This document shows, one piece after another, positions 5,178 to 54,440 of a stretch of 64,000 bases of DNA. Position numbers and translations under genes: made by a program. Each line of letters opens with the position of its first letter. The first letter of the stretch is position 1. Source of the DNA: Tubulanus polymorphus (lineage: Eukaryota; Animalia; Nemertea); the NCBI RefSeq assembly GCF_964204645.1, contig NC_134028.1, forward strand, positions 12,943,263 through 13,007,262. Direction: 5' to 3'. The notes below the pieces were generated by a model. The model made no database searches. It saw nothing but the letters and a program-made list of their open reading frames with translations, and had not been told where the DNA came from.

Positions 5178-5615
5178 AGTAATAGGGATAATGGGCTTTC
5201 AGGCCAAAGGTCGAACGGTCGAGCTCGTAAAAAATGAAAAACATAAAAATAATAACAATTTCTACTTGAATTACTCGCGAAACTCATAAAAATGAAAAAT
5301 AAATTCTCACACGCTCGAATTTATTTTTCATTTTCATGAGTTTCACTCCTAATTCAAGTAGAAATTGTTATTATTTTTATGTTTTTCATTTTTACTCACC
5401 CGCCCGTTCAACCTTTAGCTTGAAAGCCCATTATCCCTATTACTCTTAAAATATTCATATATATATGAATAACATTTAAATCATTGAACTTCTAAAATCA
5501 ATTTTAATAAAAAATATAGTATTAAAATGGAAGCAAATAAATACTACTGCCCAACATGTAATATCGATATAGATAAGTCTCAAAAAGCAAGACATAATAA
5601 AACTAAAACACATTT
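5178..5615 (+). repeat. Left TIR of P1; 5178-5444 is itself a 267-bp imperfect palindrome
   Basis: Reverse complement of 22047-22486. Begins AGTAATAGGGATAATGGGCTTTCA, and 5421-5444 is its reverse complement TGAAAGCCCATTATCCCTATTACT. Confidence 0.95.
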
Positions 5616-5700
5616 GTTTTTAGTCCAGTTGGTTAAAGCAAAAACATTTATCGAATTAAGGAACTCAACATATAGTGAAAAATACGTTGAATCGTTATAA
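5527..5700 (+). CDS. 57-aa mini-ORF whose first ~30 residues duplicate the PolB N-terminal zinc finger
   Basis: Manual translation MEANKYYCPTCNIDIDKSQKARHNKTKTHLFLVQLVKAKTFIELRNSTYSEKYVESL*; same upstream promoter as polB because the TIR includes it. Confidence 0.45.
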   Translation: MEANKYYCPTCNIDIDKSQKARHNKTKTHLFLVQLVKAKTFIELRNSTYSEKYVESL

Positions 5701-5835
5701 ACGCCTGATAATACTCAGCTATATAGTTGGTTGTATTAGCTCTAGTAAACATATGTTACCAGCTTATATTTCAATTGTAAAGAGTTAATTAATTTCATTG
5801 ATCTAAATGCTTTTATTATTGATTTTTTTTCAACT

Positions 5836-6061
5836 TCAACGCGTTGTGTATACGGCGAACGTTAGCGAATCACAAATCTCATAATTTACAAGTCTCAACG
5901 TGTTGTGTATTATACATCATACGGTGGATGTTAGCGAATCACAAATCTCATAATTTACAAGTCTCAACGCGCTTTTTAGATGTTTCTGGACAACTAAGCT
6001 CTAACCAATCAAAAGTCTTATAATTCGCAAGTCTCAACACGCTTGTTCTAGATGTTTCTGG
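5836..6061 (+). repeat. Short imperfect tandem repeats in the P1 left non-coding region
   Basis: GTTAGCGAATCACAAATCTCATAATTTACAAGTCTCAACG occurs twice; CAAGTCTCAAC three times; TAGATGTTTCTGGA twice. Confidence 0.75.
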
Positions 6062-6760
6062 ATATAGAATAGTATAAATAGGCGCGCACATCAGACGCTT
6101 AACATAGCTATAGAATAAATCTATAAATTCACAGCTGTTACAGCTGCCGAGATATTATGAATCATAATCAGAAACGTGTAGAATATTCTAGAAAGGCGCG
6201 CCGGAACTAGATGACGTGGTATAATCAACGATCTAGAAATCACCCCGGAAATGGATATACGCTGTAATATTGTGCTCGGGATATTCTATCTTTCGAAACG
6301 AAATAAGGAGTTTATAGTTTACAATTATAAATCTAAATGTAAGTACTGTTTGTTGTAGTTATTAAGGCTATTAAATATGAAACCTTTAGATATATTTAAG
6401 CGTATTTAGTATATCTTTTAGATAGCTAGAGTTACCGCTAATATCTTTTAGATTAATAAAACGTCATACACATCAAGAAGCGATAGAGAAACTCAAGATA
6501 CTCTTTCTGACTGAGGAATCAACAGCAATGGATATCAAACCAATAGAATCACCAAAAGAAGAAACTATATAAGAATTTCAAAAACATTGAGACTCCAATG
6601 ATTAAGTTTAACATTTGTTAATGTAGTTAAATATTTACCAGCAATTGAAAAAATGTTTGTAATTATAAATTGTATTTATAGAAATCAAATGATGTATTAG
6701 AAGAAATGACTGAACAACTTGTATAATGTATTGTGTAAATCTGATTTGTGAATTTTTATG

Positions 6761-7325
6761 TTCAGTCGTTTCTATTATGTTTAACACATACGCATTAAGC
6801 AAAACCGGCCATAAATGGCCGCATGTAACACATGTAACGCATGTGACGCAGACATGAATGCGTTTGAATTTTCTATGTTCAGTTGTTTCTATTTTACAGA
6901 ATTTATAGAATGAATATATAATTATGATTAACACATATACATTAAGCAAAACCGGCCACAAATGGCCGCATGTGACACATGTAACGCATGCAACGCATAT
7001 GTTGTTTCTATTTTACAGAATTTATAGAATGAATATATAATTATGATTAACACATGTGCATTAAGCAAAACCGGCCATAAATGGCCGCATGTGATACATG
7101 TAACACATGTGTTGTTTCTATTTTATAGAATTTATAGAATGAATATATAATTATGATTAGCGCATGCGCATTAAGCAAAAACGCTCCAATAAGAGCGGTT
7201 TTGCCTAATGCGAACACGTTTTGATATTTCATGTCGGTCGTTTCTATTTTACAGAATTTATTGAATGAATATATAATTATGTTTAACGCATGCGCATTAA
7301 GCAAAACCGGCCATAAATGGCCGGC
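6761..7325 (+). repeat. Five ~110-150-bp tandem units containing palindromes
   Basis: Recurring GTTTCTATTTTACAGAATTTATAGAATGAATATATAATTATG...CATTAAGCAAAACCGGCCATAAATGGCCG. Confidence 0.9.
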
Positions 7326-7470
7326 CGCTTGTATGATTTTGATATCAAGGAATCGAAATGATTTATCAACTACGGCGGCGAGGAATGAAAAAGAACAAGG
7401 AATGGAAAAGAGCAGCACATAGATTTCAAACAAAAATAAATACAATTTTAGTAAAAAATATGTAATATAA

Positions 7471-8145
7471 ATGGAACCAGAACAACCACAAACTATCAAT
7501 ATTACAAATAACACTGGTGTTATAAACATATATTACAAGAAATGTTCTAAATGTGAATTAGATAAATCATTAACAGAATTTAGTAAGCGTAAGATTAGCA
7601 AAGATGGTTTTCAATATTGTTGTAAAACTTGTACTAAACTATACACCAAACAATATCGAGAAGATAATATAAAACATTATAATTATTATATGACAAAATA
7701 TATGAGAGAAAGATATCAAACAGATCTTAATTTTAGATTGAAACAATGCTTAAGGTCTAGATTAACACAATTATTCAACAAAGAAACGCATTCAGAAACA
7801 CTATCTAATTTATTGGGTTGTTCAGATGAATTTCTCAAATCATGGATTATATTTCAATTCGATGATAAAATGAATATAGATAATTATGGGGATTATTACC
7901 ACATTGATCACGTGTTACCAATATCTAAATTTAACATGAATGATGAATACAATAAAAAACTTATTTGGGGTTGGAAAAATTTAAGACCTTTAGAAAAGAA
8001 AGAAAATCAAACCAAATCTAATAAACTAGATTTACAATTATATTTGGAACAGTTGAATAAAGCAAGGAAATTTATTGATTGGTGGAATAGTAACCCACAG
8101 AATGAACAATATGTTGAGGAATTTGATATCAAGGATCCGAAATGA
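7471..8145 (+). CDS. HNH-family endonuclease with N-terminal Cys zinc site (giant-virus type)
   Basis: CSKC...CCKTC; YHIDHVLP...WKNLRPLEKKENQTKSNK HNH motif. A decayed homolog lies at 50554-51100. Confidence 0.8.
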   Translation: MEPEQPQTINITNNTGVINIYYKKCSKCELDKSLTEFSKRKISKDGFQYCCKTCTKLYTKQYREDNIKHYNYYMTKYMRERYQTDLNFRLKQCLRSRLTQLFNKETHSETLSNLLGCSDEFLKSWIIFQFDDKMNIDNYGDYYHIDHVLPISKFNMNDEYNKKLIWGWKNLRPLEKKENQTKSNKLDLQLYLEQLNKARKFIDWWNSNPQNEQYVEEFDIKDPK

Positions 8146-8447
8146 CTTATCTGGACAGTTATAGTTACTGCTCCTAATAGATAGACAATAGTAGTGAGAT
8201 ATCAAATAGAATTCAAATAAAATATATTAAAAAAACAATAACTTCAACTGCTAGTGAATTCTGTTATATTTTTAATATTTTCTTTTCAAAAAGAGAATAC
8301 TTTATATTTTGAATAGATTCAAATAGAAATTCTTTAAATTCAAATAGCTAGTATCAGTAGTCAATACTAGAATTCTTTAACTTTAACTATCTAGTATCAT
8401 TTGAAGAATACTTATAATATTTTTTTTGCTTTTTTTCTCTAATATAA

Positions 8448-9050
8448 ATGTCAAAGAAATCTAATAAGAATAGTATTGATATTGAAAAAACATTAGATGA
8501 TTTGGGTATAAGTGATAATAAAGATACAGTTGCAACTAATTGTGCTCAAGTTAATAACAATATAGATTATGAATACTATTTATATTGTAAGCATCATCTT
8601 GAATTATTAATTGCTGGCGGGAAATCTAAGGACTTCTTAGGAAAAATAATAACTTTTCAAGAACTAGACTCTATGAAACCCGATAAAGTAATAAAATATT
8701 TTAAGATTTATGGAGAGTCAAGATTAGCTAGAATAAACGACTCTATAAGTGATGGTATTGTCAAATGTTATTCTAAGTTATGTAACCAGTTAATACCAAT
8801 TGATGATGAAAATAAATTATATAATGATTTGAAAAATGATTATTTAGTTATGACTGAATTACAAAAATGGGTTGGATACGCTTCATTTCAATTAGGATCG
8901 GTTATGACATTGATTTCTACTGGAGTTATAACATTTTCGAACATCAAACCTATGGAATATAAATCAGGTAAGAACGAAACAGATGTACTACAACAAAACA
9001 TCGAAACAGAAAATGAATCAGAACAAAAATTAACTAAAATAAATGAGTGA
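8448..9050 (+). CDS. Conserved Polinton hypothetical protein (200 aa)
   Basis: Long ORF in very AT-rich DNA, TAAATG start context, homolog at 51356-51860. Confidence 0.75.
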   Translation: MSKKSNKNSIDIEKTLDDLGISDNKDTVATNCAQVNNNIDYEYYLYCKHHLELLIAGGKSKDFLGKIITFQELDSMKPDKVIKYFKIYGESRLARINDSISDGIVKCYSKLCNQLIPIDDENKLYNDLKNDYLVMTELQKWVGYASFQLGSVMTLISTGVITFSNIKPMEYKSGKNETDVLQQNIETENESEQKLTKINE

Positions 9051-9426
9051 TGGAGTTAAGAAAAAAGCTAGATCCGAGAAACAAATTAAATGGGCAAGAG
9101 AATTAGGTAAAAGATCATCAGAATTAAAAAAAGCTAAGAAAAAGAAATTAACTGATATAAATGAATCACAGAAATTATCTGATGATGCCGTACGGCACCC
9201 ACACGGTGGTATTGATTCAAATAATAATCCATCTAATTCTTCTAATAGTGGAAGAAATAATTACTTATATATTACAATTGGGTTAATCACAATTATTATA
9301 TTATCCGGTGTAATATATAAATCAAAATTCAAATCCGATGATAAAGATGATTCTAATGATAATAAACCCATCATACCAGAAAATAAATCAAATGAAAATA
9401 AATCTAAAATATTATTAATGGATTAA
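9043..9426 (+). CDS. Small protein with basic N-terminus and one predicted transmembrane helix
   Basis: Lys/Arg-rich start; hydrophobic YLYITIGLITIIILSGVIY; homolog at ~51875-52237. Confidence 0.7.
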   Translation: MSDGVKKKARSEKQIKWARELGKRSSELKKAKKKKLTDINESQKLSDDAVRHPHGGIDSNNNPSNSSNSGRNNYLYITIGLITIIILSGVIYKSKFKSDDKDDSNDNKPIIPENKSNENKSKILLMD

Positions 9427-9429
9427 AAT

Positions 9430-10518
9430 ATGATGAAAAAAGAACAATATTTAAGAGAGTTATATTATAACCCAGAAAGTGAAGTATCATATTCAAGTGT
9501 TTCGGAATTATGGGATAAAATTAAATCTGATAAAGAAAAAATAAAATATAGTGAATTAAAATCATGGTTACAAAATCAACCCACATATCAAATTCATAAA
9601 AAGATGGATAAAAAATATTTAACAAGAAAAGTTATGGTTTCATATATCGATCAACAATGGCAAGCAGATTTAATTGACATGAAAAACTTAGAAGAATATA
9701 ACAAAGGATATTTCTGGATATTAAATGTTATAGACATATTCAGTAGATACGCATGGAGTATCCCGATTAAAAATAAAACTGGTATAGAAGTTACAAATGC
9801 TTTTAAATCTATATTTAAAGAAGCTATTCCAGATAAAATACAATTTGATGAAGGTAAGGAATTTTATAACAAACATTTTAAAAAACTATTAACTGATAAC
9901 GATGTAGAATATTTTTCAACACATTCAGATAAAAAAGCATCTGTTATAGAAAGATTTAATAAAACATTGAAAACTAGAATGTGGAAATATTTTACTGCTA
10001 ATGAAACATATAAATATATCGATGTGTTAGATGATTTAGTTAAAGGTTATAATAATTCTAAACATAGTTCTATAAATATGAAACCTATACAAGCTAGAAA
10101 AGAAGAAAATTCAGAAATAGTTTGGAATAATTTATATGGAGCATTTGTTACACATGATTTTGGAGAACCTAAATTTAAAATAGGACAACATGTTAGAATT
10201 TCTAAATATCGAAAAACATTTTATAAAGGTTATACCCCAAATTTTACAGAAGAAATATTTAAAATTAAAAAGATAATATTAACTAAACCATTTGTTTATA
10301 AATTGTTTGATTTAAAAGCTGAAGAAATATTAGGTTATTTTTATGAACAAGAATTATCATTAGTACCAAATCCAGATGAAATAGAATACAAAATAGAAAA
10401 AGTATTGAAAACAAAAACTCTTAAAGGAAAAAAGTATTCTTTGGTGAAATATAAAGGATATGATGATAAATTTAATGAATGGATTTTATCTAGTAAAATT
10501 AAAAGAATAAATGAATAA
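9430..10518 (+). CDS. int: Retroviral-like (rve) DDE integrase with C-terminal chromodomain
   Basis: WQADLID, VIDIFSRYAW, IQFDEGKEF, KASVIERFNKTLK; C-terminal YKIEKVLK...LVKYKGYDDKFNEWI. Confidence 0.95.
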   Translation: MMKKEQYLRELYYNPESEVSYSSVSELWDKIKSDKEKIKYSELKSWLQNQPTYQIHKKMDKKYLTRKVMVSYIDQQWQADLIDMKNLEEYNKGYFWILNVIDIFSRYAWSIPIKNKTGIEVTNAFKSIFKEAIPDKIQFDEGKEFYNKHFKKLLTDNDVEYFSTHSDKKASVIERFNKTLKTRMWKYFTANETYKYIDVLDDLVKGYNNSKHSSINMKPIQARKEENSEIVWNNLYGAFVTHDFGEPKFKIGQHVRISKYRKTFYKGYTPNFTEEIFKIKKIILTKPFVYKLFDLKAEEILGYFYEQELSLVPNPDEIEYKIEKVLKTKTLKGKKYSLVKYKGYDDKFNEWILSSKIKRINE

Positions 10519-11107
10519 AGATCTATTTATATTTGAACCACATAATATGTTAGTTACTGGAGTTACAAATTGTGGTAAAACACACTTCATATTATATTTA
10601 TTAGAAACTATTTATAAAAATCATTTCGATAATATAATATTATTCTGCCCAACTTATGAAATGAATGAAACGTATAATAGAGATATAGTTTTTAAAGATA
10701 AAAAGTTTATTATATTAAATTCTAAAACAGTAAAAGATAATTTAGATAATTGTATAAAAATTGCATTAGATATTTATAAAGGATCTAATACATTATTTAT
10801 TATCGATGATTGCGCAAATTTACATGATTCTAAAATTAGAGAAAGCGAGTTATGTTATTTAGCTTTCTCTGGTAGACATTTTGGGATAACAACATGGGTT
10901 TTAAATCAGAAATATAATTCAATTGTGAAAGATTTTAGAGAGAATATAAGATTTCTAGTTTTATTCTACAACAAAGATAGAAAATCTATGCAACAATCAT
11001 TGGAAGAAAATCAAATTATACCTACTGAATTACATGATGAATATATGAATAAATTAAAAAATAATAAAGGTTCAAAATTATTACTGAGATTACAATTTTT
11101 TTTATGA
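10511..11107 (+). CDS. A32/FtsK-like genome packaging ATPase
   Basis: Walker A GVTNCGKT, Walker B LFIIDD, SGRH and LNQKY motifs. The C-terminus is altered by a T-run relative to copy 2 (QFPYEYKFRK). Confidence 0.92.
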   Translation: MNKDLFIFEPHNMLVTGVTNCGKTHFILYLLETIYKNHFDNIILFCPTYEMNETYNRDIVFKDKKFIILNSKTVKDNLDNCIKIALDIYKGSNTLFIIDDCANLHDSKIRESELCYLAFSGRHFGITTWVLNQKYNSIVKDFRENIRFLVLFYNKDRKSMQQSLEENQIIPTELHDEYMNKLKNNKGSKLLLRLQFFL

Positions 11108-11139
11108 ATATAAATTTATAAAATAACTATTTGTATACC

Positions 11140-11228
11140 TATGTATTAGATACCCTAATACCTGATACCCTTATACCTGATACCCTAATACCTGATACCC
11201 TAATACCTGATACCCTATTAGATACCTT
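11140..11228 (+). repeat. 15-bp minisatellite (CCTGATACCCTAATA)n at the convergence of the two gene blocks
   Basis: About four full units plus flanking partial units between the ATPase stop and the stop of ORF 11301-12257. Confidence 0.85.
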
Positions 11229-11300
11229 AAATAATTTAAACCCCCTTTTTTATTTACTATTATTTTATACAATTTTCAACCTTTATTATTCGAGTTTTAG

Positions 11301-12257
11301 TTAATCAATTTCTGAATCACTTTCACTATAAGACGCTAACAATTTATTTAAATGCTCTACCGAATCTTCTTCAACATCTTTATAATTTTTTTTCACCTTT
11401 TTCACCTTTTTCACCTTTTTTACCTTTTTCATATTTTTTACTAAATCATCAATAGTTGTTTTATTGTTAAGTTTATTGATCCAATCAAATTTATCATTAT
11501 TTTCTACTTTAAGTTTTATAGAATCTTTATTATCAATATGTTTAACTGTAACTATATCATCATGTGGGTGTATGACATCATTTTCATTATCATCTTTATT
11601 AGTGTTTGATCCTAATATTTCATTTACAGTGTTTGATCCTAATATTTCATTAGCATCGGTTAAATCTAATTCATCTTTATTAGGTGTTGCTAATAATAAA
11701 TCTTCATATATTTTTTCACCATTTACTTTTTTATTTGAAACAAATTTTGTAACATATCTAAATGGGTGTTCTATAAATTCTCTTAAACCAACACGTTCTA
11801 TAACATTAGTAATATGTGAATTTGTATTCATATGTTTATTCCAATTTGATGGAGCGTTTGAAAATTCACCATTACAATAATCACAATAACTTCTATTTTC
11901 ACTAACATTTAATATTATTGCATTATTATATGTAGAAGGTATTATATTATTTGATGTAGAGGGTACTACAGATGTAGAAGGTATTATGTTATTAGATGTA
12001 GAAGGTATTACATTATTAGATGTAGAAGGTATTACGTTATTAGATGTAGAAGGTATTACATTATTATCAATTACATTACTTAAATTATCAACAACACCAC
12101 TTTTATTATTATCGATTTCTATCAGTTTAGTTTTATAATTTTTAAAAATAGGATCAAATATCAAAGCTATATTACAAGGTATTACATAATATAAACCATC
12201 ATTATTTTCATGTGTATCGATGTATGGAATATGTTTATATACTTTACCTCCTTCCAT
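11301..12257 (-). CDS. Accessory protein with (NNVIPSTS)n repeats, C2H2-like zinc finger and (KKV)n tail
   Basis: CDYC...HMNTNSH; internal tandem peptide repeats; conserved upstream motif. Confidence 0.7.
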   Translation of the reverse strand: MEGGKVYKHIPYIDTHENNDGLYYVIPCNIALIFDPIFKNYKTKLIEIDNNKSGVVDNLSNVIDNNVIPSTSNNVIPSTSNNVIPSTSNNIIPSTSVVPSTSNNIIPSTYNNAIILNVSENRSYCDYCNGEFSNAPSNWNKHMNTNSHITNVIERVGLREFIEHPFRYVTKFVSNKKVNGEKIYEDLLLATPNKDELDLTDANEILGSNTVNEILGSNTNKDDNENDVIHPHDDIVTVKHIDNKDSIKLKVENNDKFDWINKLNNKTTIDDLVKNMKKVKKVKKVKKVKKNYKDVEEDSVEHLNKLLASYSESDSEID

Positions 12258-12289
12258 TTATTATATAAATTTTTATTAAAGTTAAAATT

Positions 12290-13537
12290 TTAATACATAA
12301 CACTATCTAATTGTGAATTTATAATATTTAATTGTGCGTCAGATATAATATAAATGTGCATTTTAAAATTTTTAATTCCTTTTTTCTTTGTCATGAATAA
12401 TTGTATTCCATCTTTAGTGTTCTGTAGTTTTTTCCCAGAACCATGTAATAAGTTATCTTCAGTTGTTCTAAAATCTAACCATAATGCAAATTTATTACCG
12501 GTATAATAATCAATTTGATTAATGTTACAATTTTCAAATGATTTTACTTTTTCATTCATAAAATGTTTTTTAATTTCTACCCATTGATCAATCATTCTCA
12601 TTCCTTGACAAAATATTTTATTTGCTATTCCTTCGATAGTTATTTTTACTTTTGTTATTTCAGGATTATAATAATTATCAACATTTATTGCGCCATTAGT
12701 ATACGTTCCAATAGTAAAAAATATTAATATACCTTTAATAGATCTTCTAGGAAAGTTAATATTCTCATTTATTATTTCATCATTTGCATTAATAGTTACA
12801 GTTTTAAATTTATCAATATAATCATATAATAATGAAAACCCTTGATTGTATTTAGTTTGAATTATACTTGAAATATTTTCATCAGTTACTGTATCATATT
12901 CTAAACATATATTCGATAATTTATAACTCATATCTTTATTAACGCTAGATATTACAATTTCATTTACAGGAGCAAATGTTATCTCAAATATAATATCTTC
13001 TTGAATTGCGTATTTATATAAAGGTGCATTATTATTTATCAATTCAAAGTCTAATGGAATTTTATATTTGCTTCCATATATACTTTTTATTAATTTATCT
13101 ACATCATTTGTTAATATTGCGCTATTAGCTTCTGATCTTAATTTATTTTGGTTTTCTGATTGAATTCCTTGAAATATCATATTATTTCTATTTTCTTTAG
13201 TTAACCATAAATCTTTATAATGCATAAATAAATTATAATCATCTAATGAGAAAACTGTTTCTGGACCAATCTTTATTGTTAACTTTTTAATCAAATATCT
13301 TCCAACATTATCAACAACATAATTATTATTATTACCGATTACTTTTATATCAGCTGATAAATAAATACTGTTTGGAACATAAAAAGTATTTTGTGTTAAT
13401 CTAGGAATTCTAACGTATAAAGTTTCATCGGGATTAATATTTGAAGGGTTATGAGTAATTATATGATGTGATCTTTCTGCTTTAATAGCATTAGATATTC
13501 TATGATTCTTAGAAGGATTGATATAACTCCCACTCAT
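12290..13537 (-). CDS. Putative major capsid protein (double jelly-roll)
   Basis: 415 aa, beta-strand-rich pattern (ETLYVRIP, IYLSADIKV, LIKKLTIKIG, FALWLDFR), typical size and position, strongly conserved in copy 2. The fold is inferred. Confidence 0.75.
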   Translation of the reverse strand: MSGSYINPSKNHRISNAIKAERSHHIITHNPSNINPDETLYVRIPRLTQNTFYVPNSIYLSADIKVIGNNNNYVVDNVGRYLIKKLTIKIGPETVFSLDDYNLFMHYKDLWLTKENRNNMIFQGIQSENQNKLRSEANSAILTNDVDKLIKSIYGSKYKIPLDFELINNNAPLYKYAIQEDIIFEITFAPVNEIVISSVNKDMSYKLSNICLEYDTVTDENISSIIQTKYNQGFSLLYDYIDKFKTVTINANDEIINENINFPRRSIKGILIFFTIGTYTNGAINVDNYYNPEITKVKITIEGIANKIFCQGMRMIDQWVEIKKHFMNEKVKSFENCNINQIDYYTGNKFALWLDFRTTEDNLLHGSGKKLQNTKDGIQLFMTKKKGIKNFKMHIYIISDAQLNIINSQLDSVMY

Positions 13538-13561
13538 TTATTTAACAAAAAAATTAATTAT

Positions 13562-15256
13562 TTATTTTTTGATATTTTTTGATATCATATTTACTAAACC
13601 AAAAATAATAGCACTTACAACTGTAATTAAAAATAAAATAATATGTTCAGCAGCAAAGTTAATAATGTTTCCTGCAGATTTCAATATAAAACCAACAATT
13701 GAAGCAATAACTCCTGGTAATGCTGCAGCAGATTTTTTAGATAGTTCCCATAAATATTTTGCTAATTTCTTTAAACCATCTTTAACTTTATCTTGTATAG
13801 AATTATTACCTGGAGGTTTATCTGGTTTATTTGGAGTAGGAGTAGATTTCAAAGCATTTGATATAGCTAAACCAATTGTTGTAAATACCATAGTTACACC
13901 AGTTAGAATTGAAAGAATTGTTATTCCTTCTAATTTAAATAACAATTTTATTCTATCTTTTAATGATATTTCAGAATCTGGTTTAATCAACAAATCTTTA
14001 AAAATAACTTTTAATTTTTTAATATGATTAAGATCATATGATTTTAATAATATATCTCTTTCTTCTTTTTGTAATTTTATGTTATATTCTAAATCATCTA
14101 TTTCTTTTACTAAAGCTAACTTTCTGCTTTCAAAATCAGCTTCATAAATTACTTGATGATTTCTATTTAATTCTAATTGTTTTAATTCTTCATCTACATT
14201 AACTAATTCTTTTTCTAACATGGTTATTTTAGAAAATCTCATCTTAATATTAGCAATTTCATCAGCTGATACTTGTATACCTTTAATTTCTCTACGTATT
14301 TGTTCAGGAAATGCTTCTAATTCTTCATCAGTTAAATTAAGAAATCCTTTTTCTAGTAAATATTGCAGTCGATTTATTCCAGTTTCAGAACCAGATGTAT
14401 CTGATATACTATTCATCAGTTCTTCTGAATCTCTTAATCTATCAATTTGTTTTTCTAATTGTAATTGACTTGAATAATTATCAATTTGTTGAGTGTCTCT
14501 TCTCGATGTTTCGGGTGTTGAAGATCTCAATCTATCTAATCGATTTCTATTCTCTTCCATTTCTGGATCAAAATCAGTAGGATTTGGATTTGGATTTTTA
14601 AATGGTGAATATTTGTTTATATCAATTTTAGGAATTGGTTTTTCTTCATTTATTCTATCGATTGCATTCCATATAATTCTGAGAAATTCTCTACCACCTT
14701 TTGAATTTTCAATTGTAGATCTTGCTCGCATTTCAGGTTCAAAAATATTTTCTTGACCCATTTTAGATAATTGAATTGTTACAATATTCCTATTTAAATC
14801 AAGATTATAATACCATGTATCATTTTTAAATTCTAAATTATTTGTGAAATATGGGTCATCTTTAAAAATTTGTTCTACAACATCTTCAGTATCAATTTCA
14901 TCTGTTACATCTGATGGTAACAATTCGTTAACAATTGTATCTGTTACTCTAGATTTCATTAAATATAAATCTTCTTTCAATTCAGGATCAGTTGTATTTA
15001 CTAATCTATTCATTAAATCTTTTCTTTCTCTTCTAGTTGTAATTATACCCCTTTCAGGAGCTTCTAAATATTTATTTAATTTTTCACGTAATTCGGGATC
15101 ATCATCATCATCATCTTCACCTAAATTAGTATTATATGTTGATTCATCATTATTATCAATATTAGCACCTGCATCATTATAATCATCATCAATATATCCT
15201 TCATTATCATTTCCCATGTCATCCAATGGAATATCTTCTCCACCTTCTACATCCAT
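13562..15256 (-). CDS. 564-aa protein: acidic N-terminus, coiled coil, C-terminal hydrophobic/TM segments
   Basis: D/E-rich start; heptad region; ITILSILTGVTMVFTTIGLAI, ALPGVIASIVGFIL and IILFLITVVSAIIFGLV hydrophobic stretches. Confidence 0.8.
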   Translation of the reverse strand: MDVEGGEDIPLDDMGNDNEGYIDDDYNDAGANIDNNDESTYNTNLGEDDDDDDPELREKLNKYLEAPERGIITTRRERKDLMNRLVNTTDPELKEDLYLMKSRVTDTIVNELLPSDVTDEIDTEDVVEQIFKDDPYFTNNLEFKNDTWYYNLDLNRNIVTIQLSKMGQENIFEPEMRARSTIENSKGGREFLRIIWNAIDRINEEKPIPKIDINKYSPFKNPNPNPTDFDPEMEENRNRLDRLRSSTPETSRRDTQQIDNYSSQLQLEKQIDRLRDSEELMNSISDTSGSETGINRLQYLLEKGFLNLTDEELEAFPEQIRREIKGIQVSADEIANIKMRFSKITMLEKELVNVDEELKQLELNRNHQVIYEADFESRKLALVKEIDDLEYNIKLQKEERDILLKSYDLNHIKKLKVIFKDLLIKPDSEISLKDRIKLLFKLEGITILSILTGVTMVFTTIGLAISNALKSTPTPNKPDKPPGNNSIQDKVKDGLKKLAKYLWELSKKSAAALPGVIASIVGFILKSAGNIINFAAEHIILFLITVVSAIIFGLVNMISKNIKK

Positions 15257-15272
15257 TTACATAATAAAAAAA

Positions 15273-16661
15273 TTAAAATTTAAAATATAATATTCCTCCG
15301 ATTACAATTCCTATACAAGTTATAGCTAATTTAGTATTTTCATGGGATTTATTATCATCATTTAGTTTAATTATATCATGTTGAATTTTATCAGTTCTAT
15401 TATTTTCTGATGTATTGTAATCTTTTATTTTAGAATCATTATTTAATTTAATATTCTTAGTTTTAGTTTCAGTTGATTGAATATGTTTTTTATTTTTTTC
15501 ACCTTCCATTAATTTTGGAGCAGTAATAATCTTTTTATTTATATCATTCAATCCAAATGAATTATTTATTGTTGCAGTTTTAATTAGATTATTATAACCA
15601 ATTATATTTCCCATCTTCAATACTAAATCATTAGAAATAATTAATAGATTAGGGCCTATACAATAATTAAGTCTTACATGAGATTTATCTAAATAATTTT
15701 GATATCTTATAATGTTTTCTGGAATCGATCTATTTTTATCATTATGAATTGAATCTTCAAATAAAACTTTAAACTGTTTTTGTGTATCGAATGATGTATT
15801 CAAATTTCCAATTATTGGGGATCTTGTTTCAACTTGTGATCCTAGAATACAAATCAAATAAGTTCTAATAGATTGATTTATTCTTTCTATACCTGATTTA
15901 GTAAAACCTTCACTATTTTCTAAAATAAAATAAACCCAACCATTTTTGTTTTCTTGTTTTAAATTATCATAAAATTTTGGTAATTTATTGAAATTGAATG
16001 TTTCTAAATCCTTTGTTTCTATTTTACCATAACCTAATTTTTTATTATAGATATTATAAAAACTATTAGATGGTATAGGAAGTGCACAATATTCTGCAAT
16101 CTTTTTAGGGCAAGGAAGTGATCTTATTGTTCCAATTTTTGTTCTAAAATCAGAATTATTTATATCTATATTAAATTCATTGCAAATTTTATAAAACTTA
16201 GATAAATTAATATTATTATCTAATTCTTTAAAATATCTAGATCCTGGTAAAGCACACTCTAATTCATTTAATATTATTCTGATTTGAAAGTATGTATGAA
16301 ATCTAAATAAACTTTGAATTAGTTTATATTTAGAATTATTCAAATGATCATTCCAACTAATTCCACATCCTGTTGTTGCACAATAAACAGCAAAATTTAA
16401 TTGGTTCTGCCAATACTTCATATTAGATTTTAATAACCATTGTTTTTCATCTTTCAATTTTTTAAAATTAATTAAATATACATGAAATATATTTTCCATC
16501 TTTGCATTAAAATTATTAGTTTCAGTAACATAAATTTCTAAATTAGTTAATGAATCTAAAACTTCATTTCTATATGTAATATCTTTATTAAAATCTATTG
16601 CTGGAATATTATATTTAATTGATTTATTATATCGGAAAGTTTTTGGAAAACTATCTACCAT
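15273..16661 (-). CDS. 462-aa conserved Polinton protein with C-terminal membrane anchor
   Basis: WQNQLNFAVYCATTGCGIS conserved in copy 2; C-terminal LAITCIGIVIGGILYF. Confidence 0.78.
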   Translation of the reverse strand: MVDSFPKTFRYNKSIKYNIPAIDFNKDITYRNEVLDSLTNLEIYVTETNNFNAKMENIFHVYLINFKKLKDEKQWLLKSNMKYWQNQLNFAVYCATTGCGISWNDHLNNSKYKLIQSLFRFHTYFQIRIILNELECALPGSRYFKELDNNINLSKFYKICNEFNIDINNSDFRTKIGTIRSLPCPKKIAEYCALPIPSNSFYNIYNKKLGYGKIETKDLETFNFNKLPKFYDNLKQENKNGWVYFILENSEGFTKSGIERINQSIRTYLICILGSQVETRSPIIGNLNTSFDTQKQFKVLFEDSIHNDKNRSIPENIIRYQNYLDKSHVRLNYCIGPNLLIISNDLVLKMGNIIGYNNLIKTATINNSFGLNDINKKIITAPKLMEGEKNKKHIQSTETKTKNIKLNNDSKIKDYNTSENNRTDKIQHDIIKLNDDNKSHENTKLAITCIGIVIGGILYFKF

Positions 16662-16679
16662 TTATATAACTAAAAAAAT

Positions 16680-17115
16680 TAATAATTTATTAATTCTTTT
16701 AATAATTTATCTTGTTCTTCAACTGTTATATGACCATTTAAACTTATTATATAATCTAGTGTGTTCTTTAATTTATTAATTTCTTTTTTATATTAGATTT
16801 TATTTTTTCTTTATTACTTTTTATATTTAATTTTGAACTTATACCAGTTAAAACACTTGAACTTAATCCTAATACACCAATTGATATAGCTAAAGGTGTT
16901 AATGGACTGAATATTGCTAGAAATGTTATTACAGAACTAATTGTAACCGAACCACTGATAATAAGATAATATATAATTTTACTTTTTAAATATTTTTTCT
17001 TTTTTATCTTTAAGTCACTTTCAAATTCTAATATTTGTTTTTCTAAATATGTTTTTAATTTAGTTTTATTTATATCATGAGGAATAATATCAATACTATC
17101 AACTTTATCTTCCAT
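16680..17115 (-). pseudogene. Two-TM membrane protein, C-terminally frameshifted in P1
   Basis: ORF 16768-17115 stops early relative to the intact 144-aa homolog at 57501-57935; two hydrophobic segments. Confidence 0.7.
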
Positions 17116-17134
17116 TTATTTAGAATAAAAATTA

Positions 17135-17538
17135 CTAATTAGTAAACTTATAAGCAACAAATATAACAATAACTAAAATCCAAATTATTTCATATTTCTG
17201 TTGTTCTTTACTTGGGGTATAATAATCTGATAATTTAGGTTTGTATAGATGTAATTTTTCTTTATTGGTTACCGCGTTATATAAACTCATTGCATCATCA
17301 ACTGATTGAAAATCTCTATGTGAAATCTTCTGATCATATAATTCTTTATTGATGTAATCCATATAGTTTTGTTTCTTTTCTCTATATTCTTCTGCAGCTT
17401 TATTGTATTTCTCTAACGTCTTCTTTGTTCTCCTAATGAACTATTTTTATCAATATGCTTAAATAAATAACCACCACCAGTAAATGCTAAAGCGTTAACA
17501 ATTGCTGATCCTATAATAGTTATAATTGCAGAAGCCAT
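17135..17538 (-). pseudogene. Membrane protein (MASAIITIIGSAIVNALAFTGGGYLF...), frameshifted
   Basis: ATG at 17538 in T7-N6-TAAATG context with a hydrophobic N-terminus; ORF 17135-17362 supplies the C-terminal part with a TM tail. Confidence 0.65.
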
Positions 17539-17562
17539 TTATTTAGCAAAAAAATTATGCAT

Positions 17563-17784
17563 TTATATGGGAGGAATATATTTTTGTTTTTCCAAATAAT
17601 CAATAGTTAAATTAGATAAAGTAACTGCTAATGTTAACTTTAAAATATCATTTATATCAAATCTATCAACATTAACACTTCCCATTTTGAATACTTTTTT
17701 TAATACCATTGAATAACCAACAGTTCCAACTGATAGTAATGCGCCATTATATAATCCAGTTATTATCCACTTATTATCACTCAT
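17563..17784 (-). CDS. 73-aa small hydrophobic protein
   Basis: Tightly packed ORF with T7-N6-TAAATG start; two amphipathic or hydrophobic segments. Confidence 0.7.
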   Translation of the reverse strand: MSDNKWIITGLYNGALLSVGTVGYSMVLKKVFKMGSVNVDRFDINDILKLTLAVTLSNLTIDYLEKQKYIPPI

Positions 17785-18126
17785 TTATTTATCAAAAAAA
17801 TTACTATCATCAAAATATTTAGTTAACTTATTTATGATTAATTCAACATTTATTTCATTACTACTTTTATGATTATCATATATTTTGGATAATATGTTTT
17901 TGATATCTTCAATAATTCCATCTTCATTTAATTCATAATATTCTAAAGGTGATTTAATTAAATCAATTACTTTTTCTATATTATACTTTTCTTTATCAAT
18001 CATTGATGCATTGTTAAATGATTTACTTTTTATATCAGTAATTACATCATTTAGTTTAATTCTCATTTCTTTACCATGTTTAAAATCAAACCCAAAACAT
18101 ATACTCGGTCCAACAGTTATATTCAT
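17785..18126 (-). CDS. 113-aa hypothetical protein
   Basis: T7-N7-TAAATG start; its stop abuts the next ATG. Confidence 0.65.
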   Translation of the reverse strand: MNITVGPSICFGFDFKHGKEMRIKLNDVITDIKSKSFNNASMIDKEKYNIEKVIDLIKSPLEYYELNEDGIIEDIKNILSKIYDNHKSSNEINVELIINKLTKYFDDSNFFDK

Positions 18127-18143
18127 TTATATAGTGAAAAAAA

Positions 18144-18901
18144 TTACTCTCTACATCTTATAACTAATTCATAAATTACAGGGAAATTATTTAAATCAAT
18201 TAAGTATCCATTATGATTTCTTATTTCTAATCTAAAATTATTAAATTTAGGAATGCAAGGTTTGAAATCACATTCTGTTAAATTATAATTTATTTGCGTT
18301 CCAAATTCTTTAACATTTTTTAATGGTAAAATATTTAATATACTAGAATTACATGTTGTATCTTTAGTTGCTTCGAATGTTTTTGTTGGGTCAATTAAAT
18401 TGCAATAAATATAAAAATGTGTAAAAGGTATTATATTTGAAATACCTTCTACGTTTACTGTAACAACATCTGGTTCAATTCCTAGCAATTTAGCTATAGG
18501 TTTTTTACCATAAATGCATGTTGACTTTCATCAAATACCTTTATTTTAATTCTATTTGAGCTATCACTTTTTATAAATCTTATTAAAAATTTATCATCTT
18601 TTCTAATTTTCAACCGTGCTCTACGATTAATTTCTTGCGCTAATGTTTCTAAATTATATAATCCTGGTCTTAGAAATAGATGAAACAATTTATTTATATT
18701 TCTAATATGAATTAAAAAAGTATTATGTTCAATAGTTTTATTCGATATATTGTAAAAAGAATTACATAAACTTATATTTACTAATTTTAAATCTACACAA
18801 TTTTTGAATTCTCTATCTAATTGTACTAATAAATTATGTGATTTATAATTTGTAAGTTTTCTAGAATCAACAAATATTCTGTATTCTTTTAATTCCGCCA
18901 T
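18144..18901 (-). pseudogene. Putative minor capsid (penton) protein, split by a frameshift
   Basis: ORFs 18494-18901 and 18144-18488 together give YRIFVDSR...LVNISLCNSFYNIS and FYIYCNLID...FRLEIRNHNGYLIDLNNFPVIYELVIR, a typical penton pattern. Confidence 0.7.
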
Positions 18902-18918
18902 TTATTTTACATATTTTC

Positions 18919-19260
18919 TTATTCGAAATCTATTTCATGGTGCCCTTTTTCATTCTTACCTTTGTATACGAAATAGAAATCTCCAGAACATAATTCTTCT
19001 AGATCTTCACTTGATAATCTATGAAATCTATCTGGTAAATAAGTTCTGAATTTATGTGTATTTTCTTTTAATCCTTCATATTCTAAGTGTATAACTAATT
19101 TATCTCCATATTTGTTAGTAATTGTAACAATATTTGTAATTAAATATTTCTTGTGAATTGTTAACTCAGTTAGTTTTTTAAATTTATAATCTACAGATTT
19201 GACGCTTGAAGTATCTTTAATTCTATCTAAGAATTCACTGTGTACTTGTTTACTCTCCAT
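18919..19260 (-). CDS. 113-aa conserved protein adjacent to polB (possible OB-fold ssDNA-binding protein)
   Basis: Conserved in P3 (63269-63623); beta-rich; TNKYG and YLPDRF motifs. Function is inferred. Confidence 0.7.
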   Translation of the reverse strand: MESKQVHSEFLDRIKDTSSVKSVDYKFKKLTELTIHKKYLITNIVTITNKYGDKLVIHLEYEGLKENTHKFRTYLPDRFHRLSSEDLEELCSGDFYFVYKGKNEKGHHEIDFE

Positions 19261-19288
19261 TTATTATACAAATTTTTATTGAAATTTA

Positions 19289-22135
19289 TTAACACGTTAG
19301 AATCCTTTTCATAATCTCATTTTCTTTTGTTTCTTCTCTTTTGAATTTTATACATTCATCTAAATTGCAACCATAGGCGACTGTGTGGATTCCATCATCT
19401 AAAATATATCTTTTATCATCAAATGGGTTTAGACTTATCTTCTCTATCTCTTCAATATACATTTCATGATCTTCAGATCTCAAACATTTCATCTTATGTT
19501 TTCTAACTTCTTCATTAAATATACAATTGATGTAATCTTTGAAATGAATATTCTTTTCAACAACGCTTTTGCTAATTCCTTTTAACTTTTTAGCTTCATG
19601 TTCTTTAGTTTTATATGAATACATTTTAGATCTAATACCTATGAACTCTATCATTTCTTCACCACCTAATTCATCCTTAAACTTCCCAGGAACTTTTTTA
19701 TTATCATTGCTAAACAATTCATGATTTTTTGGATAGTTACTGAAATCAAAATGGTGTTTTAATATTTTTAAGTCTTTTGTTATGTTATCACTTTTTATTT
19801 TTAATATGTAAGAATCTGTATCTAGATATAAGATTTCTATATGTTTTTCCCCAAAATGGGGTTGCAATACATTATAATAGAATTCATACATCAATAGCTT
19901 TGAAATTTCTAAAACAGCTCCAACATAAATAGGTTTATTGAACTTCATAGAAGTTCTTTTTAATTTAACTGCAGCTAAATTTTCATCGAATATTCTATTA
20001 CCTTTGAATTTCGGATACGATTGCAAATGTCTAATTCTTTTACCATTACTAACTAACTCAATATCATTTCTATTTCTTATGTTTTCACATGTTTTTCCAT
20101 AGAACGCATTGTTCATTAGTTTAAAGTAATCTTTTTCAAAATCAGTTTTAGCTTCAGTTCTCTGTGTAGTATTAAAATCTATATATTTTTCTAACCACTT
20201 AGATTGATTAAATGAAATATATCTATGTACTTTTTTAAATATCATTCTTTGATTCAAATAAAACTTCAACATTCTATAATGTACTACATAATTATATTTA
20301 TCTTCTTGAGTTACCATTAACTTTTCAGTATGAATATGATTATCGGGTTTAATTCTTTTTTGATAATTTGATAATTCTTCATGTTTAACAGTTTTATGTT
20401 CGGGACAATATGCTAGATTTCTAGATTTAAATTTAATATTTTCAGGGTATTCTAAATCTACAACAAAGAAATAACCAATATCTGAATCATCTGCAATATC
20501 TAGGATTCTTTTCTTCCAATCAAATTTATCAATTTGTAAAACTTCAGTTATTTCAAACATCCCATAAGGTTGTGGTTCCATCATTGCCCAACCATAAAGA
20601 TTATTTGCATCTATGTATAATAATTTATATCCAGGATTATCATTTACATTGAAATATCTATCACCCAATACACCTGAAACACCTCCTCTTATAGATTTTT
20701 CAAATAATAGTAATTGATCTATATTTGTTAACAAATCCATTTTTATATTTGTAAATTTTAATCCACAATCCCATGTTAATCCTGGACTTGAATAACAATG
20801 ACAAGGATCAATATTGAAATATTTTAGGTTTACATCTCTAAACCTTTCGAATATATCAGTTAATAATAATACATCTGATTTTAAATATAAATCTACTAAT
20901 TGTCCATGATTTTTAATTTCGAAATGATTCCAAATATTCAATGTTCTATTATAGACTTCATCTTTAACATATTCATTTTTTAATTCATCATAGAATTGTT
21001 CTTTCAATAATTCAGTTATTTTAAAATCATTATGATTTTTATAGAAAGAATATGGAATTGCTCCTTTATATCTCATTAATTTAAAATCATAATTTGGGTA
21101 ATATTCTTTTAATATCTTTAATTCATCATCAATTAATGATTTTGATAAGTTATCTAATGAACTATTTAAAAATCTATATGAATCTATAAATCTTAAACAA
21201 CCAAATTGGAATGATATATAATTCTCAGATGTTTTAGCTAACATTCTAAATTTATAAGTTGGTATTTTATCTTTTGATTTATTTGAATTTAATATTTCTA
21301 TTTCATTATTAATTTCTTCTATTTTATGACACAGTTGTTTAATGAATAAATGCGCGTCATACCCCGATAAATTGTGAAATATAATGGGGACAAAATTTAC
21401 TTTTTTGGCTTGTAAATTGCAAGCCTCATGCGCTGCACCTCTAAATTTACCATTCAAATGATCATGGTCTCTTACTTTTTTATCTTTATAATTAAATATC
21501 TTTTCACAATAATAACATTTATCTGCAAACTCAAATGCTTCTTTATCTTCTTCTGTCATAATTATTTCTTTATTTGTATTCAATAATTTACTAAATCTTA
21601 TTTCATATTCAATTAATAGGTCACAAAAATGATTGATAACATTTTCATTTGTTAATGTTTTTCCTTTATGAAATTTAAACTCGATAGCTGCTGGACCAAT
21701 ATCACTTTTAAATGCTTCGGTTATCTCTATATCTTTTTTATTATCTAATGAATTAATATAATTTCTTACATCTTCCATATATGGTCTTTTATTGTTTAAT
21801 TTATTTTTTATTCTTTTAATTGTCTTCTGTTTCTTATCGTTATTATTATCAAAATAATCTTCACCTAAAATATCATTATTCTTATTTCTAATATGACTTA
21901 TAGATTTTAAATGTTCTTTATAATATCTTTTATCACTGAATGATTGATTACATGTATCACATTTATATGTTTTCTTTTCATTCTTTAATTCTTCTAATTT
22001 AGTTTCTAATATATCATCCTTATATTCTAGTTTCAATTTATTCTCTAAATGTGTTATAGTTTTATTGTGTCTTGCTTTTTGAGACTTATCTATATCGATA
22101 TTACATGTTGGGCAGTAGTATTTATTTGCTTCCAT
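19289..22135 (-). CDS. polB: Protein-primed family B DNA polymerase, with an in-frame internal deletion
   Basis: FHNLSGYDAHL, YIDANNLYGWAM, KLMNNAFYGK and YLDTDS motifs; endonuclease VII-like insert CYYC...RDHDH...HEACNL; N-terminal zinc fingers. Lacks ~394 codons present in P3. Confidence 0.95.
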   Translation of the reverse strand: MEANKYYCPTCNIDIDKSQKARHNKTITHLENKLKLEYKDDILETKLEELKNEKKTYKCDTCNQSFSDKRYYKEHLKSISHIRNKNNDILGEDYFDNNNDKKQKTIKRIKNKLNNKRPYMEDVRNYINSLDNKKDIEITEAFKSDIGPAAIEFKFHKGKTLTNENVINHFCDLLIEYEIRFSKLLNTNKEIIMTEEDKEAFEFADKCYYCEKIFNYKDKKVRDHDHLNGKFRGAAHEACNLQAKKVNFVPIIFHNLSGYDAHLFIKQLCHKIEEINNEIEILNSNKSKDKIPTYKFRMLAKTSENYISFQFGCLRFIDSYRFLNSSLDNLSKSLIDDELKILKEYYPNYDFKLMRYKGAIPYSFYKNHNDFKITELLKEQFYDELKNEYVKDEVYNRTLNIWNHFEIKNHGQLVDLYLKSDVLLLTDIFERFRDVNLKYFNIDPCHCYSSPGLTWDCGLKFTNIKMDLLTNIDQLLLFEKSIRGGVSGVLGDRYFNVNDNPGYKLLYIDANNLYGWAMMEPQPYGMFEITEVLQIDKFDWKKRILDIADDSDIGYFFVVDLEYPENIKFKSRNLAYCPEHKTVKHEELSNYQKRIKPDNHIHTEKLMVTQEDKYNYVVHYRMLKFYLNQRMIFKKVHRYISFNQSKWLEKYIDFNTTQRTEAKTDFEKDYFKLMNNAFYGKTCENIRNRNDIELVSNGKRIRHLQSYPKFKGNRIFDENLAAVKLKRTSMKFNKPIYVGAVLEISKLLMYEFYYNVLQPHFGEKHIEILYLDTDSYILKIKSDNITKDLKILKHHFDFSNYPKNHELFSNDNKKVPGKFKDELGGEEMIEFIGIRSKMYSYKTKEHEAKKLKGISKSVVEKNIHFKDYINCIFNEEVRKHKMKCLRSEDHEMYIEEIEKISLNPFDDKRYILDDGIHTVAYGCNLDECIKFKREETKENEIMKRILTC

Positions 22136-22486
22136 TTTAATACTATATTTTTTATTAAAATTGATTTTAGAAGTTCAATGATTTAAATGTTATTCATATA
22201 TATATATGAATATTTTAAGAGTAATAGGGATAATGGGCTTTCAAGCTAAAGGTTGAACGGGCGGGTGAGTAAAAATGAAAAACATAAAAATAATAACAAT
22301 TTCTACTTGAATTAGGAGTGAAACTCATGAAAATGAAAAATAAATTCGAGCGTGTGAGAATTTATTTTTCATTTTTATGAGTTTCGCGAGTAATTCAAGT
22401 AGAAATTGTTATTATTTTTATGTTTTTCATTTTTTACGAGCTCGACCGTTCGACCTTTGGCCTGAAAGCCCATTATCCCTATTACT
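22047..22486 (-). repeat. Right TIR of P1; 22220-22486 is the 267-bp fold-back
   Basis: Reverse complement of 5178-5615; overlaps the polB start codon. Confidence 0.95.
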
Positions 22487-50077: not shown

Positions 50078-50199
50078 AGTAATATGGTTTTAGTTGTTCT
50101 ATACCAAAGGTCGAAGGGTCTAAAAATAAATTCTCGCACACTCGAATTTATTTTTCGACCCTTCAACCTTTGTTATAGAACAACTAAAACACTATTACT
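50078..50199. repeat. 122-bp terminal fold-back of P2
   Basis: AGTAATATGGTTTTAGTTGTTCTATA... pairs with ...TATAGAACAACTAAAACACTATTACT; same central loop as P1. Confidence 0.92.
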
Positions 50200-53935: not shown

Positions 53936-54440
53936 CTATTTATATGTCTAAGTACTAGACGTATGAGTAAGAAACCAAGATTCTTGCTAAGAAAGTAAGA
54001 ATTCTTGGATTCTTACTCATACGTCTAGTATATAGATATATAAATTAGTTTTTATAAAAATTATAAATATAAATTATTAAATGAAATATATAATAATGAA
54101 TAAATTATATATTAAAACTATGTTTATAATTTATGTTTACACAGGGGTACAAATATATATATGTATTTTAAATTTATAATAATTACAAATGTAAATTATT
54201 AAATGAAATATATAAAAATGAATAAATTATATGTTTTCACTCAATAGAAATAAAAATAGATTATGTTATAACTATTTCTATACTTCAATTAGTAATTTAT
54301 ATTTTTAATTTTTATAAAAACTAATTTATATATGTATGTACTAGACATATGAGTAAGAAAGTAAAAATTCTTACTTTCTTTGATTCTTGGATTTTTACGT
54401 ACGTTTAGTACATAGATATATAAATTAGTTTTATAATAAT
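53933..54440. repeat. Two long hairpins in the P2 convergent intergenic region
   Basis: TACTAGACGTATGAGTAAGAA/TTCTTACTCATACGTCTAGTA (53953-54030) and a related stem at ~54310-54436. Confidence 0.85.

Follow-up and report, generated by a model that had tools for sequence, protein, structure and literature searches.

The 64-kb window of Tubulanus polymorphus contig NC_134028.1 analyzed here (the whole stretch of DNA, within which all coordinates below are positions) contains an integrated Polinton-type provirus, P1 (5178..22486), which is 17.3 kb long, has a GC content of about 24% and lies within a LINE. Nearly every gene of P1 starts within the hexamer TAAATG, preceded either by a run of T's (class L) or by an A-rich core (class I). 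GC content is 0.245 in P1 versus 0.35-0.39 in the flanks, a 6-bp target duplication (ATTATA) borders the element on both sides, and its terminal inverted repeats (TIRs) span ~440 bp, of which 289 nt match at 100% and 159 nt at 99%. Within the left TIR (5178..5615, forward strand) lie a 267-nt imperfect palindrome (5178-5444) and the promoter of polB, together with a duplicate of that gene's 5' end; the right TIR (22047..22486, reverse strand) has the same make-up. P1 shares with Polintons/Mavericks (Polintoviricetes; adintoviruses, PMC8502044; papers are cited here for those parts of their text that were accessible) TIRs starting with AGT, the 6-bp duplication, a protein-primed DNA polymerase (pPolB), an rve integrase with chromodomain, an A32/FtsK-type ATPase, a double-jelly-roll major capsid protein (MCP) and a length of 17 kb. 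It differs in its several conserved membrane-type genes, in an MCP without sequence match in Pfam or PDB, in its terminal palindromes, and in the adenain protease, for which no Pfam match was found in its 17 open reading frames (ORFs) or in 74 ORFs of relatives, although a diverged form could escape such a search.

Two related copies lie further along the window. P2 (50078..58114) is a decayed copy of P1, 79-92% identical to it and with a shorter terminal palindrome (50078-50199), while P3 (58115..64000, forward strand) sits inside P2 and extends past the window end; taken together, the P2/P3 copies are 79-94% identical to P1. The flanks at 2445-5177 and 22487-50000 consist of repeats, namely the LINE cut by P1 (RVT_1), Ty3-type gag/protease pieces and hAT fragments; no host gene was recognized in them, and CpG content offered no usable contrast. 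Copy number was assessed over region 4000-11120 with raw DNA reads from a separate study bearing the same species label (X6; ~12% of the reads). At 90% likeness, depth was mostly 230-730 over the P1 body, compared with 15-31 in the LINE next to it; from the left end of P1, 1390 reads continue into unlike sequence (agreement 0.34). The family therefore sits at many genomic sites.

On the forward strand, an HNH/endonuclease VII-like gene (7471..8145; PHROG 1035, E 4e-18) with a class I site at 7450..7474 is followed by a 200-aa conserved family gene with no assigned function (8448..9050), which has homologues in 20 of the 80 related loci described below and whose class L site (8430..8450) has no gene within 300 bp upstream. 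A 127-aa gene with a hydrophobic stretch (9043..9426) starts at TAAATG and is A-rich upstream, as is the A32-like packaging ATPase (10511..11107; PF04665), the C-terminus of which is unlike that of its relatives through a frameshift. Between them lies the rve integrase with chromodomain (9430..10518; PF00665, E 2e-9; PF00385), which lacks TAAATG.

The genes from 11301 onward are read on the reverse strand. The first is a variable 318-aa gene with a zinc-finger-like motif (11301..12257), which has homologues only in L003 and L004 (L-numbers, e.g. L001, denote the metagenome and viral loci compared); its class I site (12254..12277) keeps its class in L003, L004 and P2, and its family has one remote homologue (1 match at E<1e-10) and no usable Atlas match. 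The MCP gene (12290..13537; class L site 13535..13556) is an intact ORF encoding 415 aa, predicted by AlphaFold2 (pLDDT 89) to form a double jelly roll, and Foldseek matches this model to the PBCV-1/SGIV capsids at E 1e-17. Two large conserved genes follow, one of 564 aa with hydrophobic C-terminal helices (13562..15256; found in 29 of 80 loci; class L site 15254..15275) and one of 462 aa with a C-terminal hydrophobic helix (15273..16661; class L site 16659..16681), for which no significant fold match was found in BFVD or PDB representatives. Next come a small membrane-type gene shortened by a frameshift relative to the P2 copy (16768..17115; class L site with a T5 run, 17113-17131) and a second one (17135..17538; class L site 17536-17557) split into two ORF pieces (17413-17538 and 17135-17362), both of which match a single ~140-aa ORF in relatives. 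A conserved 73-aa gene (17563..17784; class L site 17782-17803) and a 113-aa gene (17785..18126; class L site 18124-18146) precede a probable penton gene (18143..18901; class I site 18898-18923), so labelled by inference and frameshifted, which is 49% identical to a 254-aa ORF of L001 over the latter's first 94 aa. Another 113-aa gene (18919..19260; class I site 19257-19280) is, we assume, SSB-like. The block ends with the protein-primed polB (19289..22135; PF03175, E 4e-14; class I site 22132-22156), an open frame from which ~1.2 kb present in P3 has been deleted, including the first exonuclease motif.

Start-codon motifs within the element

An initial annotation of this DNA had proposed that nearly all P1 genes start in TAAATG, the integrase excepted, and the counts bear this out, with the hexamer at 14 of 17 ORF starts versus 34 of the 564 other ATGs in 7440-22160. 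The three other starts are those of polB (TAAAATG), of the integrase (neither form) and of the second piece of a frameshifted gene (17362). A T7 run followed by 5-9 nt and TAAATG marks 7/17 ORF starts and 0/564 other ATGs; among TAA(A)ATG sites only, the T7 run is found at 7/15 starts versus 0/41. The corresponding p values (Fisher p 6e-14 for TAAATG at starts, p 3e-5 for the T7 run among TAA(A)ATG sites) are optimistic because the patterns were derived from the very sites on which they were scored; the relatives provide the independent test. Class I, written as A[AG]TAA-N11-14-TAA(A)ATGG, occurs at 6/17 starts and at none of the 564 others, which adds one site to the five previously listed. 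All listed motif sites were recovered with their spacers, 13/13 in P1 and 7/7 in P2/P3, except that at 58613 the AATAA core reads AAAAA. The recurrence in P2/P3 is thus real, but these promoters differ from those of P1 at only a few bases and add little, because they are near copies of P1 and not independent.

Enrichment over shuffled sequence, which the annotation had offered as its own test, is pronounced: TAAT7-N6-8-TAAATG occurs eight times in the window, every time at a gene start, versus 0.01 expected from 100 shuffles. Sense-strand runs of at least seven T's number nine in P1, and seven of these directly precede a TAAATG start. As controls, spurious short ORFs in P1 have TAAATG in 7/59 cases and host-side transposon ORFs in 1/22. 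The TAA of TAAATG serves as the stop of the upstream gene in 1 of 14 cases only (the 17784 site).

Conservation among relatives

Relatives were gathered by a capsid profile search, and the best 80 of 212 confirmed metagenome loci were compared. For 70 loci the match extended to the N-terminus of the capsid protein, so that capsid starts could be compared. In the ten closest loci (52-77% capsid identity, GC 20-44%) the capsid gene starts at TAAATG in 10/10 cases; of the other 60, seven had no usable ATG and TAAATG marks the capsid start in 5/53. A quick tree was built from 50 rows and a careful one from 33, with 17 distant rows left out, and in both the ten closest loci (L001-L010) and P1 form one clade, with support of 100/98 in the careful tree. 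When starts of all ORFs of at least 100 aa are counted, L001-L010 have TAAATG at 43/47, with a T5 run at 20, versus TAAATG at 3/225 and a T5 run at 0 in a distant clade of 29 rows. Six nearer loci lacking the signal have it at 1/30 starts and seven non-clade loci of GC at or below 33% at 1/36, and within the clade it is kept at GC contents of 36% and 44% (L005, L006). The TAAATG-negative relatives carry the same gene set as the P1 clade. A purine at -3 is found at 4/47 clade starts versus 163/225 in the distant clade.

Gene arrangement supplies a further test. In L007-L009 the capsid gene stands head-to-head with its neighbor across 28-30 bp and both starts are TAAATG, which excludes stop-start packing and 3'-end signals there; together with the single shared stop in P1, these pairs uphold the view that TAA-ATG packing alone is insufficient. 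The TAAATG design is clade-wide, and neither AT content nor stop-start packing explains it. The original observation is solid, and the relatives make it stronger than it was when first made. Outside the clade, TAAATG starts are also present in a few long-branch loci (L043, L044, L050, L072, L074, L078).

Several features of the relatives were noted alongside these counts. In the distant clade (L013-L080), TTTAAA lies at -26 to -36 in 21 of its 27 occurrences across 191 upstream regions, a host-type geometry whose spacing would imply very short leaders. L001 carries a deoxynucleoside kinase gene (10343-10981; PF01712) behind a T-run promoter, which was considered as a pointer to a helper family and gave none. 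L045 has a superfamily-1-type helicase-like gene (9970-13596; AAA_30) and no recognizable polB, and L080 has a Bro-N gene (638-1462). Relatives of the MCP or integrase were absent from the viral contig collection searched, and the genome contig collection yielded two short contigs in prokaryote bins.

Candidate helper viruses and competing explanations

The two site classes can be compared with function across 89 orthologous starts grouped by hand. A T at the tenth base before TAAAT is present at 44/50 starts of eight virion-type genes and at 15/39 starts of polB, SSB, HNH, integrase, ATPase, penton and two other genes, a split which is partly circular because the grouping followed the classes of P1. 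Class is stable in the close clade for the MCP, the 200-aa gene and the 318-aa gene. The proposed match to vaccinia intermediate and late promoters agrees with published work: late promoters of vaccinia are marked by a T at -10 and intermediate ones by a stretch rich in A/T at 15-19 nt upstream (PMC11980589), and the viral polymerase reads the TAAA at -1 to +3, with a core that lies 12 bp upstream and lacks a consensus (PMC12917281). Both designs have TAAAT(G) overlapping the start, with a T at -10 and neighboring T's in one class, as in late promoters, and in the other an A-rich core ~12 bp upstream and no T at -10, as in intermediate promoters; the latter comparison is a weak test, since the core has no strict consensus. 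The A32 packaging ATPase of vaccinia is intermediate too, but the assignment of other genes differs. Vaccinia expresses its polymerase and SSB genes early and its double-jelly-roll scaffold D13 as an intermediate gene, whereas here polB belongs to the A-rich class and the MCP to the T-run class.

To what extent such a signal identifies a helper was examined with motif scans of IMG/VR (120 of ~490 matching stretches for one pattern and 82 stretches for the other) and with five loci around one giant-virus gene, all counts being made after removal of the seed matches. The P1 group has TAAATG at 58/66 starts, with a T at -10 in 44 and a T5 run in 27. Two poxvirus contigs (Pox_P4A, Pox_P4B, capping enzyme, Pox_A32), which we take to be of insect type, contributed four loci with TAAATG at 24/60 starts. 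Nine non-pox giant-virus loci, possibly iridovirus-like in placement, have it at 36/95 (~38%), and of these starts 22 show a T at -10 and five a T5 run; the share is inflated because these loci were picked for being high in TAAATG; 189 other viral loci have it at 87/1095. The nine (L092, L102, L106, L137, L152, L255, L256, L285 and L286) carry XRN1, RNase III, NIF phosphatase, RPB5, MutS or A22-like resolvase genes, and they show head-to-head T-run/A-run promoters resembling those of the Polinton clade. L288, which is syntenic with them (TAAATG 3/18), has an RPB1 far nearer to Pol II than to vaccinia (173 vs. 33 bits), and TAAAT-like motifs have been described in some iridovirus promoters (PMC5294985). 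Among large DNA viruses the signal is thus not confined to poxviruses; it is neither uniquely poxviral nor especially entomopoxviral, because non-pox giant viruses share TAAATG and the insect-type poxvirus loci mostly lack the T-run. What the signal suggests is a cytoplasmic large DNA virus, so that this part of the annotation's pox-like helper is likely and its pox-specific part is weakened.

TAAATG, preceded at a distance of 7-20 bases by either a T-run or an A-rich core, likely constitutes a promoter for the RNA polymerase of a co-infecting virus, and the P1 lineage likely lives as a virophage-like satellite. P1 has a TIR at either end, and none of its 17 ORFs gave a Pfam match to RNAP, TBP or TFIIB; nor did any of the 74 sequences that represent 142 unassigned ORFs of relatives. 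The reading that we favor, with a little better than even confidence, is that the lineage is transcribed by the polymerase of a cytoplasmic large DNA virus; as to which virus, a poxvirus and a non-pox giant virus appear about evenly balanced. Under this reading the helper polymerase would read the TAAA and initiate on the A's just before the ATG, and a 5' poly(A) leader made by slippage would replace the T at -3. The A-rich promoters (polB, ATPase, the 318-aa gene and often SSB and HNH) would fire first and the T-run promoters (capsid and membrane-type genes) later. By established poxvirus biology, a satellite packaging no early machinery could use only post-replicative promoters of this kind. 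Integrated copies would remain silent until helper infection, and for the route by which a nuclear copy might reach the helper's machinery mavirus offers the only precedent.

A number of observations limit this reading or weigh against it. P1 itself is, judged from its reading frames, a broken copy: besides the internal deletion in polB, four ORFs are frameshifted relative to the copies or relatives (the penton candidate, the two small membrane-type genes and the ATPase end), and the proposal that P1 is an inducible provirophage falls with them. The many integration sites and identical TIRs point to germ-line spread, which a strictly helper-dependent cytoplasmic cycle would have to explain. 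The TAAATG state does not form one clean clade (four changes; p-AU 0.042 against a single origin without reversals), the integrase lacks the signal in P1, L003 and L078, and only 1 of the 24 TAAATG starts of the four poxvirus loci has a T5 run. As for the proposed cascade from replication to capsid genes, the penton, ATPase and 9043 genes of P1 all belong to the A-rich class; SSB has a T-run in L001 and HNH in L004 and L008; the penton has a T-run in L007 and L068 and is A-rich in P1 and L001; the kinase gene of L001 has a T-run; and in head-to-head pairs the T-run of one strand is the A-run of the other. A loose trend survives, and the cascade is no firmer than plausible because class is unstable for SSB, HNH and penton. 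Lastly, AATAAA is undepleted in P1 coding sequence (ratio 1.10), being present in 13 of the 15 ORFs examined with 12 occurrences in polB; AT-rich TAAATG-negative relatives behave alike (0.99), and this depletion test does not discriminate because the negative controls are equally undepleted. Splice-signal depletion did not discriminate either.

Transcription by host Pol II in the nucleus, steered by a factor that the element encodes (diverged TBP/TFIIB-like or late) or that a helper supplies, would remove the difficulty of a nuclear template, and we regard it as possible though improbable. In the model proposed for mavirus, a factor from the helper enters the nucleus (10.1101/068312), related MELD/Polinton elements include some with TBP genes (PMC8502044), and the 318-aa class I gene, limited to the close clade, has its zinc-finger-like motif. 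The Pfam searches reported above found neither TBP nor TFIIB, but the TBP/TFIIB-like factors of poxviruses themselves elude sequence searches (PMC12917281). What weighs against a steered Pol II is that the invariant element lies across the ATG and not ~30 nt upstream of it, that its vaccinia equivalent is read by a viral polymerase, and that a T at -3 makes a poor start context on an ordinary leader. Less probable again is host machinery acting unaided through a lineage-specific initiator at the start codon, with very short leaders, to which several Polinton lineages would have adapted. The appearance of TAAATG in more than one place of the tree (L044, L072/L074, L078) and the wide spread of the family in the genome would fit such an initiator, but host-side transposon ORFs in the window hardly show it, and two upstream cores matching both post-replicative poxvirus classes would be a coincidence.

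An explanation by 3'-end or translation signals of packed genes (a TAA stop by the ATG, AATAAA acting in polyadenylation, and a T-run that would terminate the preceding gene or be its downstream element) appears quite unlikely. T-runs do come directly after the stop of the upstream gene at the 15256, 16661 and 18126 sites, AATAAA follows the MCP and polB stops, and the coding strands of relatives in the clade hold less TTTTTNT than expected (ratio 0.37). Set against this are the rarity of shared stops, a constant spacing of 6-8 nt to the ATG, and the presence of the motifs before genes that are first in their block (polB, 7471, 8448) and in head-to-head pairs (L001 as well as L007-L009). A composition artefact of 24% GC sequence may be discounted, for although TAAATG makes up 6% of other ATGs and turns up at some spurious ORF starts in P1, it marks 82-91% of true starts, persists at 44% GC, and is rare both in AT-rich relatives and in the 189 other viral loci.

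The reading of the P1 lineage as a helper-transcribed satellite has parallels in known systems. Virophages share promoter motifs with their helpers, as the annotation had stated: this is documented for mavirus (10.1101/068312, PMC8547959) and for Gezel-14T with its helper PgV, where it marks helper dependence, and induction of integrated Polinton-like viruses (PLVs) is established in Tetraselmis. Like P1, mavirus/EMALEs with CroV, Gezel-14T with PgV and the Tetraselmis PLVs with TetV-2 are integrating satellites, and their promoters match those of the helper. They differ in that their hosts are protists and their helpers of mimivirus type, that they use a single class of helper motif (late TCTA or early AAAATTGA) and that induction has been demonstrated by experiment, whereas P1 has two post-replicative classes and a probable animal host. 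PLVs associated with entomopoxviruses, which the annotation had mentioned, are indeed reported (Barth et al. 2024, PMC11296320) as small animal PLVs proposed to parasitize poxviruses; these come from occlusion bodies, are ~12 kb long and have a cysteine protease and no rve integrase, whereas P1 appears to lack a protease and its helper link is made by promoters only, in a high-copy integrated family. The accessible text of that paper holds no promoter analysis ("promot" appears only in a reference and "motif" nowhere), and promoters go unmentioned in the accessible text of the adintovirus (PMC8502044) and coral polintovirus papers and of an egovirus preprint. A full-text literature search, covering titles and opening lines of mostly open-access papers, returned no report of poxvirus-type promoters in Polintons. 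The cytoplasmic linear plasmids of yeast (pGKL virus-like elements, PMC6211774) are also pPolB elements with a TAAAN initiator, which gives 5' poly(A) leaders there; unlike P1 they have their own RNA polymerase and capping enzyme, an early-type upstream element, no capsid and no integration.

The earlier interpretation is in sum partly supported. A broader scenario, which we put forward tentatively and consider doubtful, is that an entire clade of Polintons in animals gave up TATA promoters of host type for a two-stage programme of poxvirus intermediate/late type. Its members would be inducible, endogenous virophages, and their helpers would be poxviruses, or giant viruses resembling them, that infect invertebrates other than insects and are still undiscovered; the promoters would then be a fingerprint of those viruses and the elements a candidate heritable antiviral defence. 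A sharp, clade-limited switch to a signal of the kind read by a viral polymerase touches the question of whether animal Polintons are transcribed autonomously or with a helper. Such a switch carries the provirophage model beyond protists in the direction of animals, and it makes promoter motifs found in host genomes a means of predicting unsampled large DNA viruses. That non-pox giant viruses share the TAAATG/T-run design is also relevant to how old the late promoter of poxviruses is.

Terminal palindromes and internal repeats

The terminal palindromes of 267 nt lie at 5178-5444, 22220-22486 and 58115-58380 (z -22), and the one in P2 (50078-50199) measures 122 nt (z -13.5). All share a common loop, and at the end of the inner arm the terminal sequence is present once more. 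The reads include palindromes of differing length, and orientation is alike at the four ends compared. These structures could represent a self-priming fold-back end or a mini-element; inspection of the four ends by eye revealed neither the poxvirus telomere-resolution pattern nor flip-flop ends. The vaccinia early consensus AAAANTGAAAA has five sites in P1, all inside the terminal palindromes and none in the 16-kb body, where ~0.9 would be expected per 16 kb; they include 5230, 5288 and 5393 and mirror sites in the right TIR, and P3 has mirror sites as well. These early-type cores were considered as a third promoter class and rejected, being absent from the shorter palindrome of P2.

The stretch that separates the left TIR from the HNH gene holds five copies (6735-7355) of a 119-nt repeat containing short palindromes, and the number of copies differs among reads. 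Where the gene blocks converge, P2 has nested inverted repeats with small hairpins (53960-54430), and P1 has instead a 14-nt tandem repeat (11150-11230). Near the window start, an isolated 76-nt match to the element terminus (196-271) may stem from a mini-element or from the end of a further copy.

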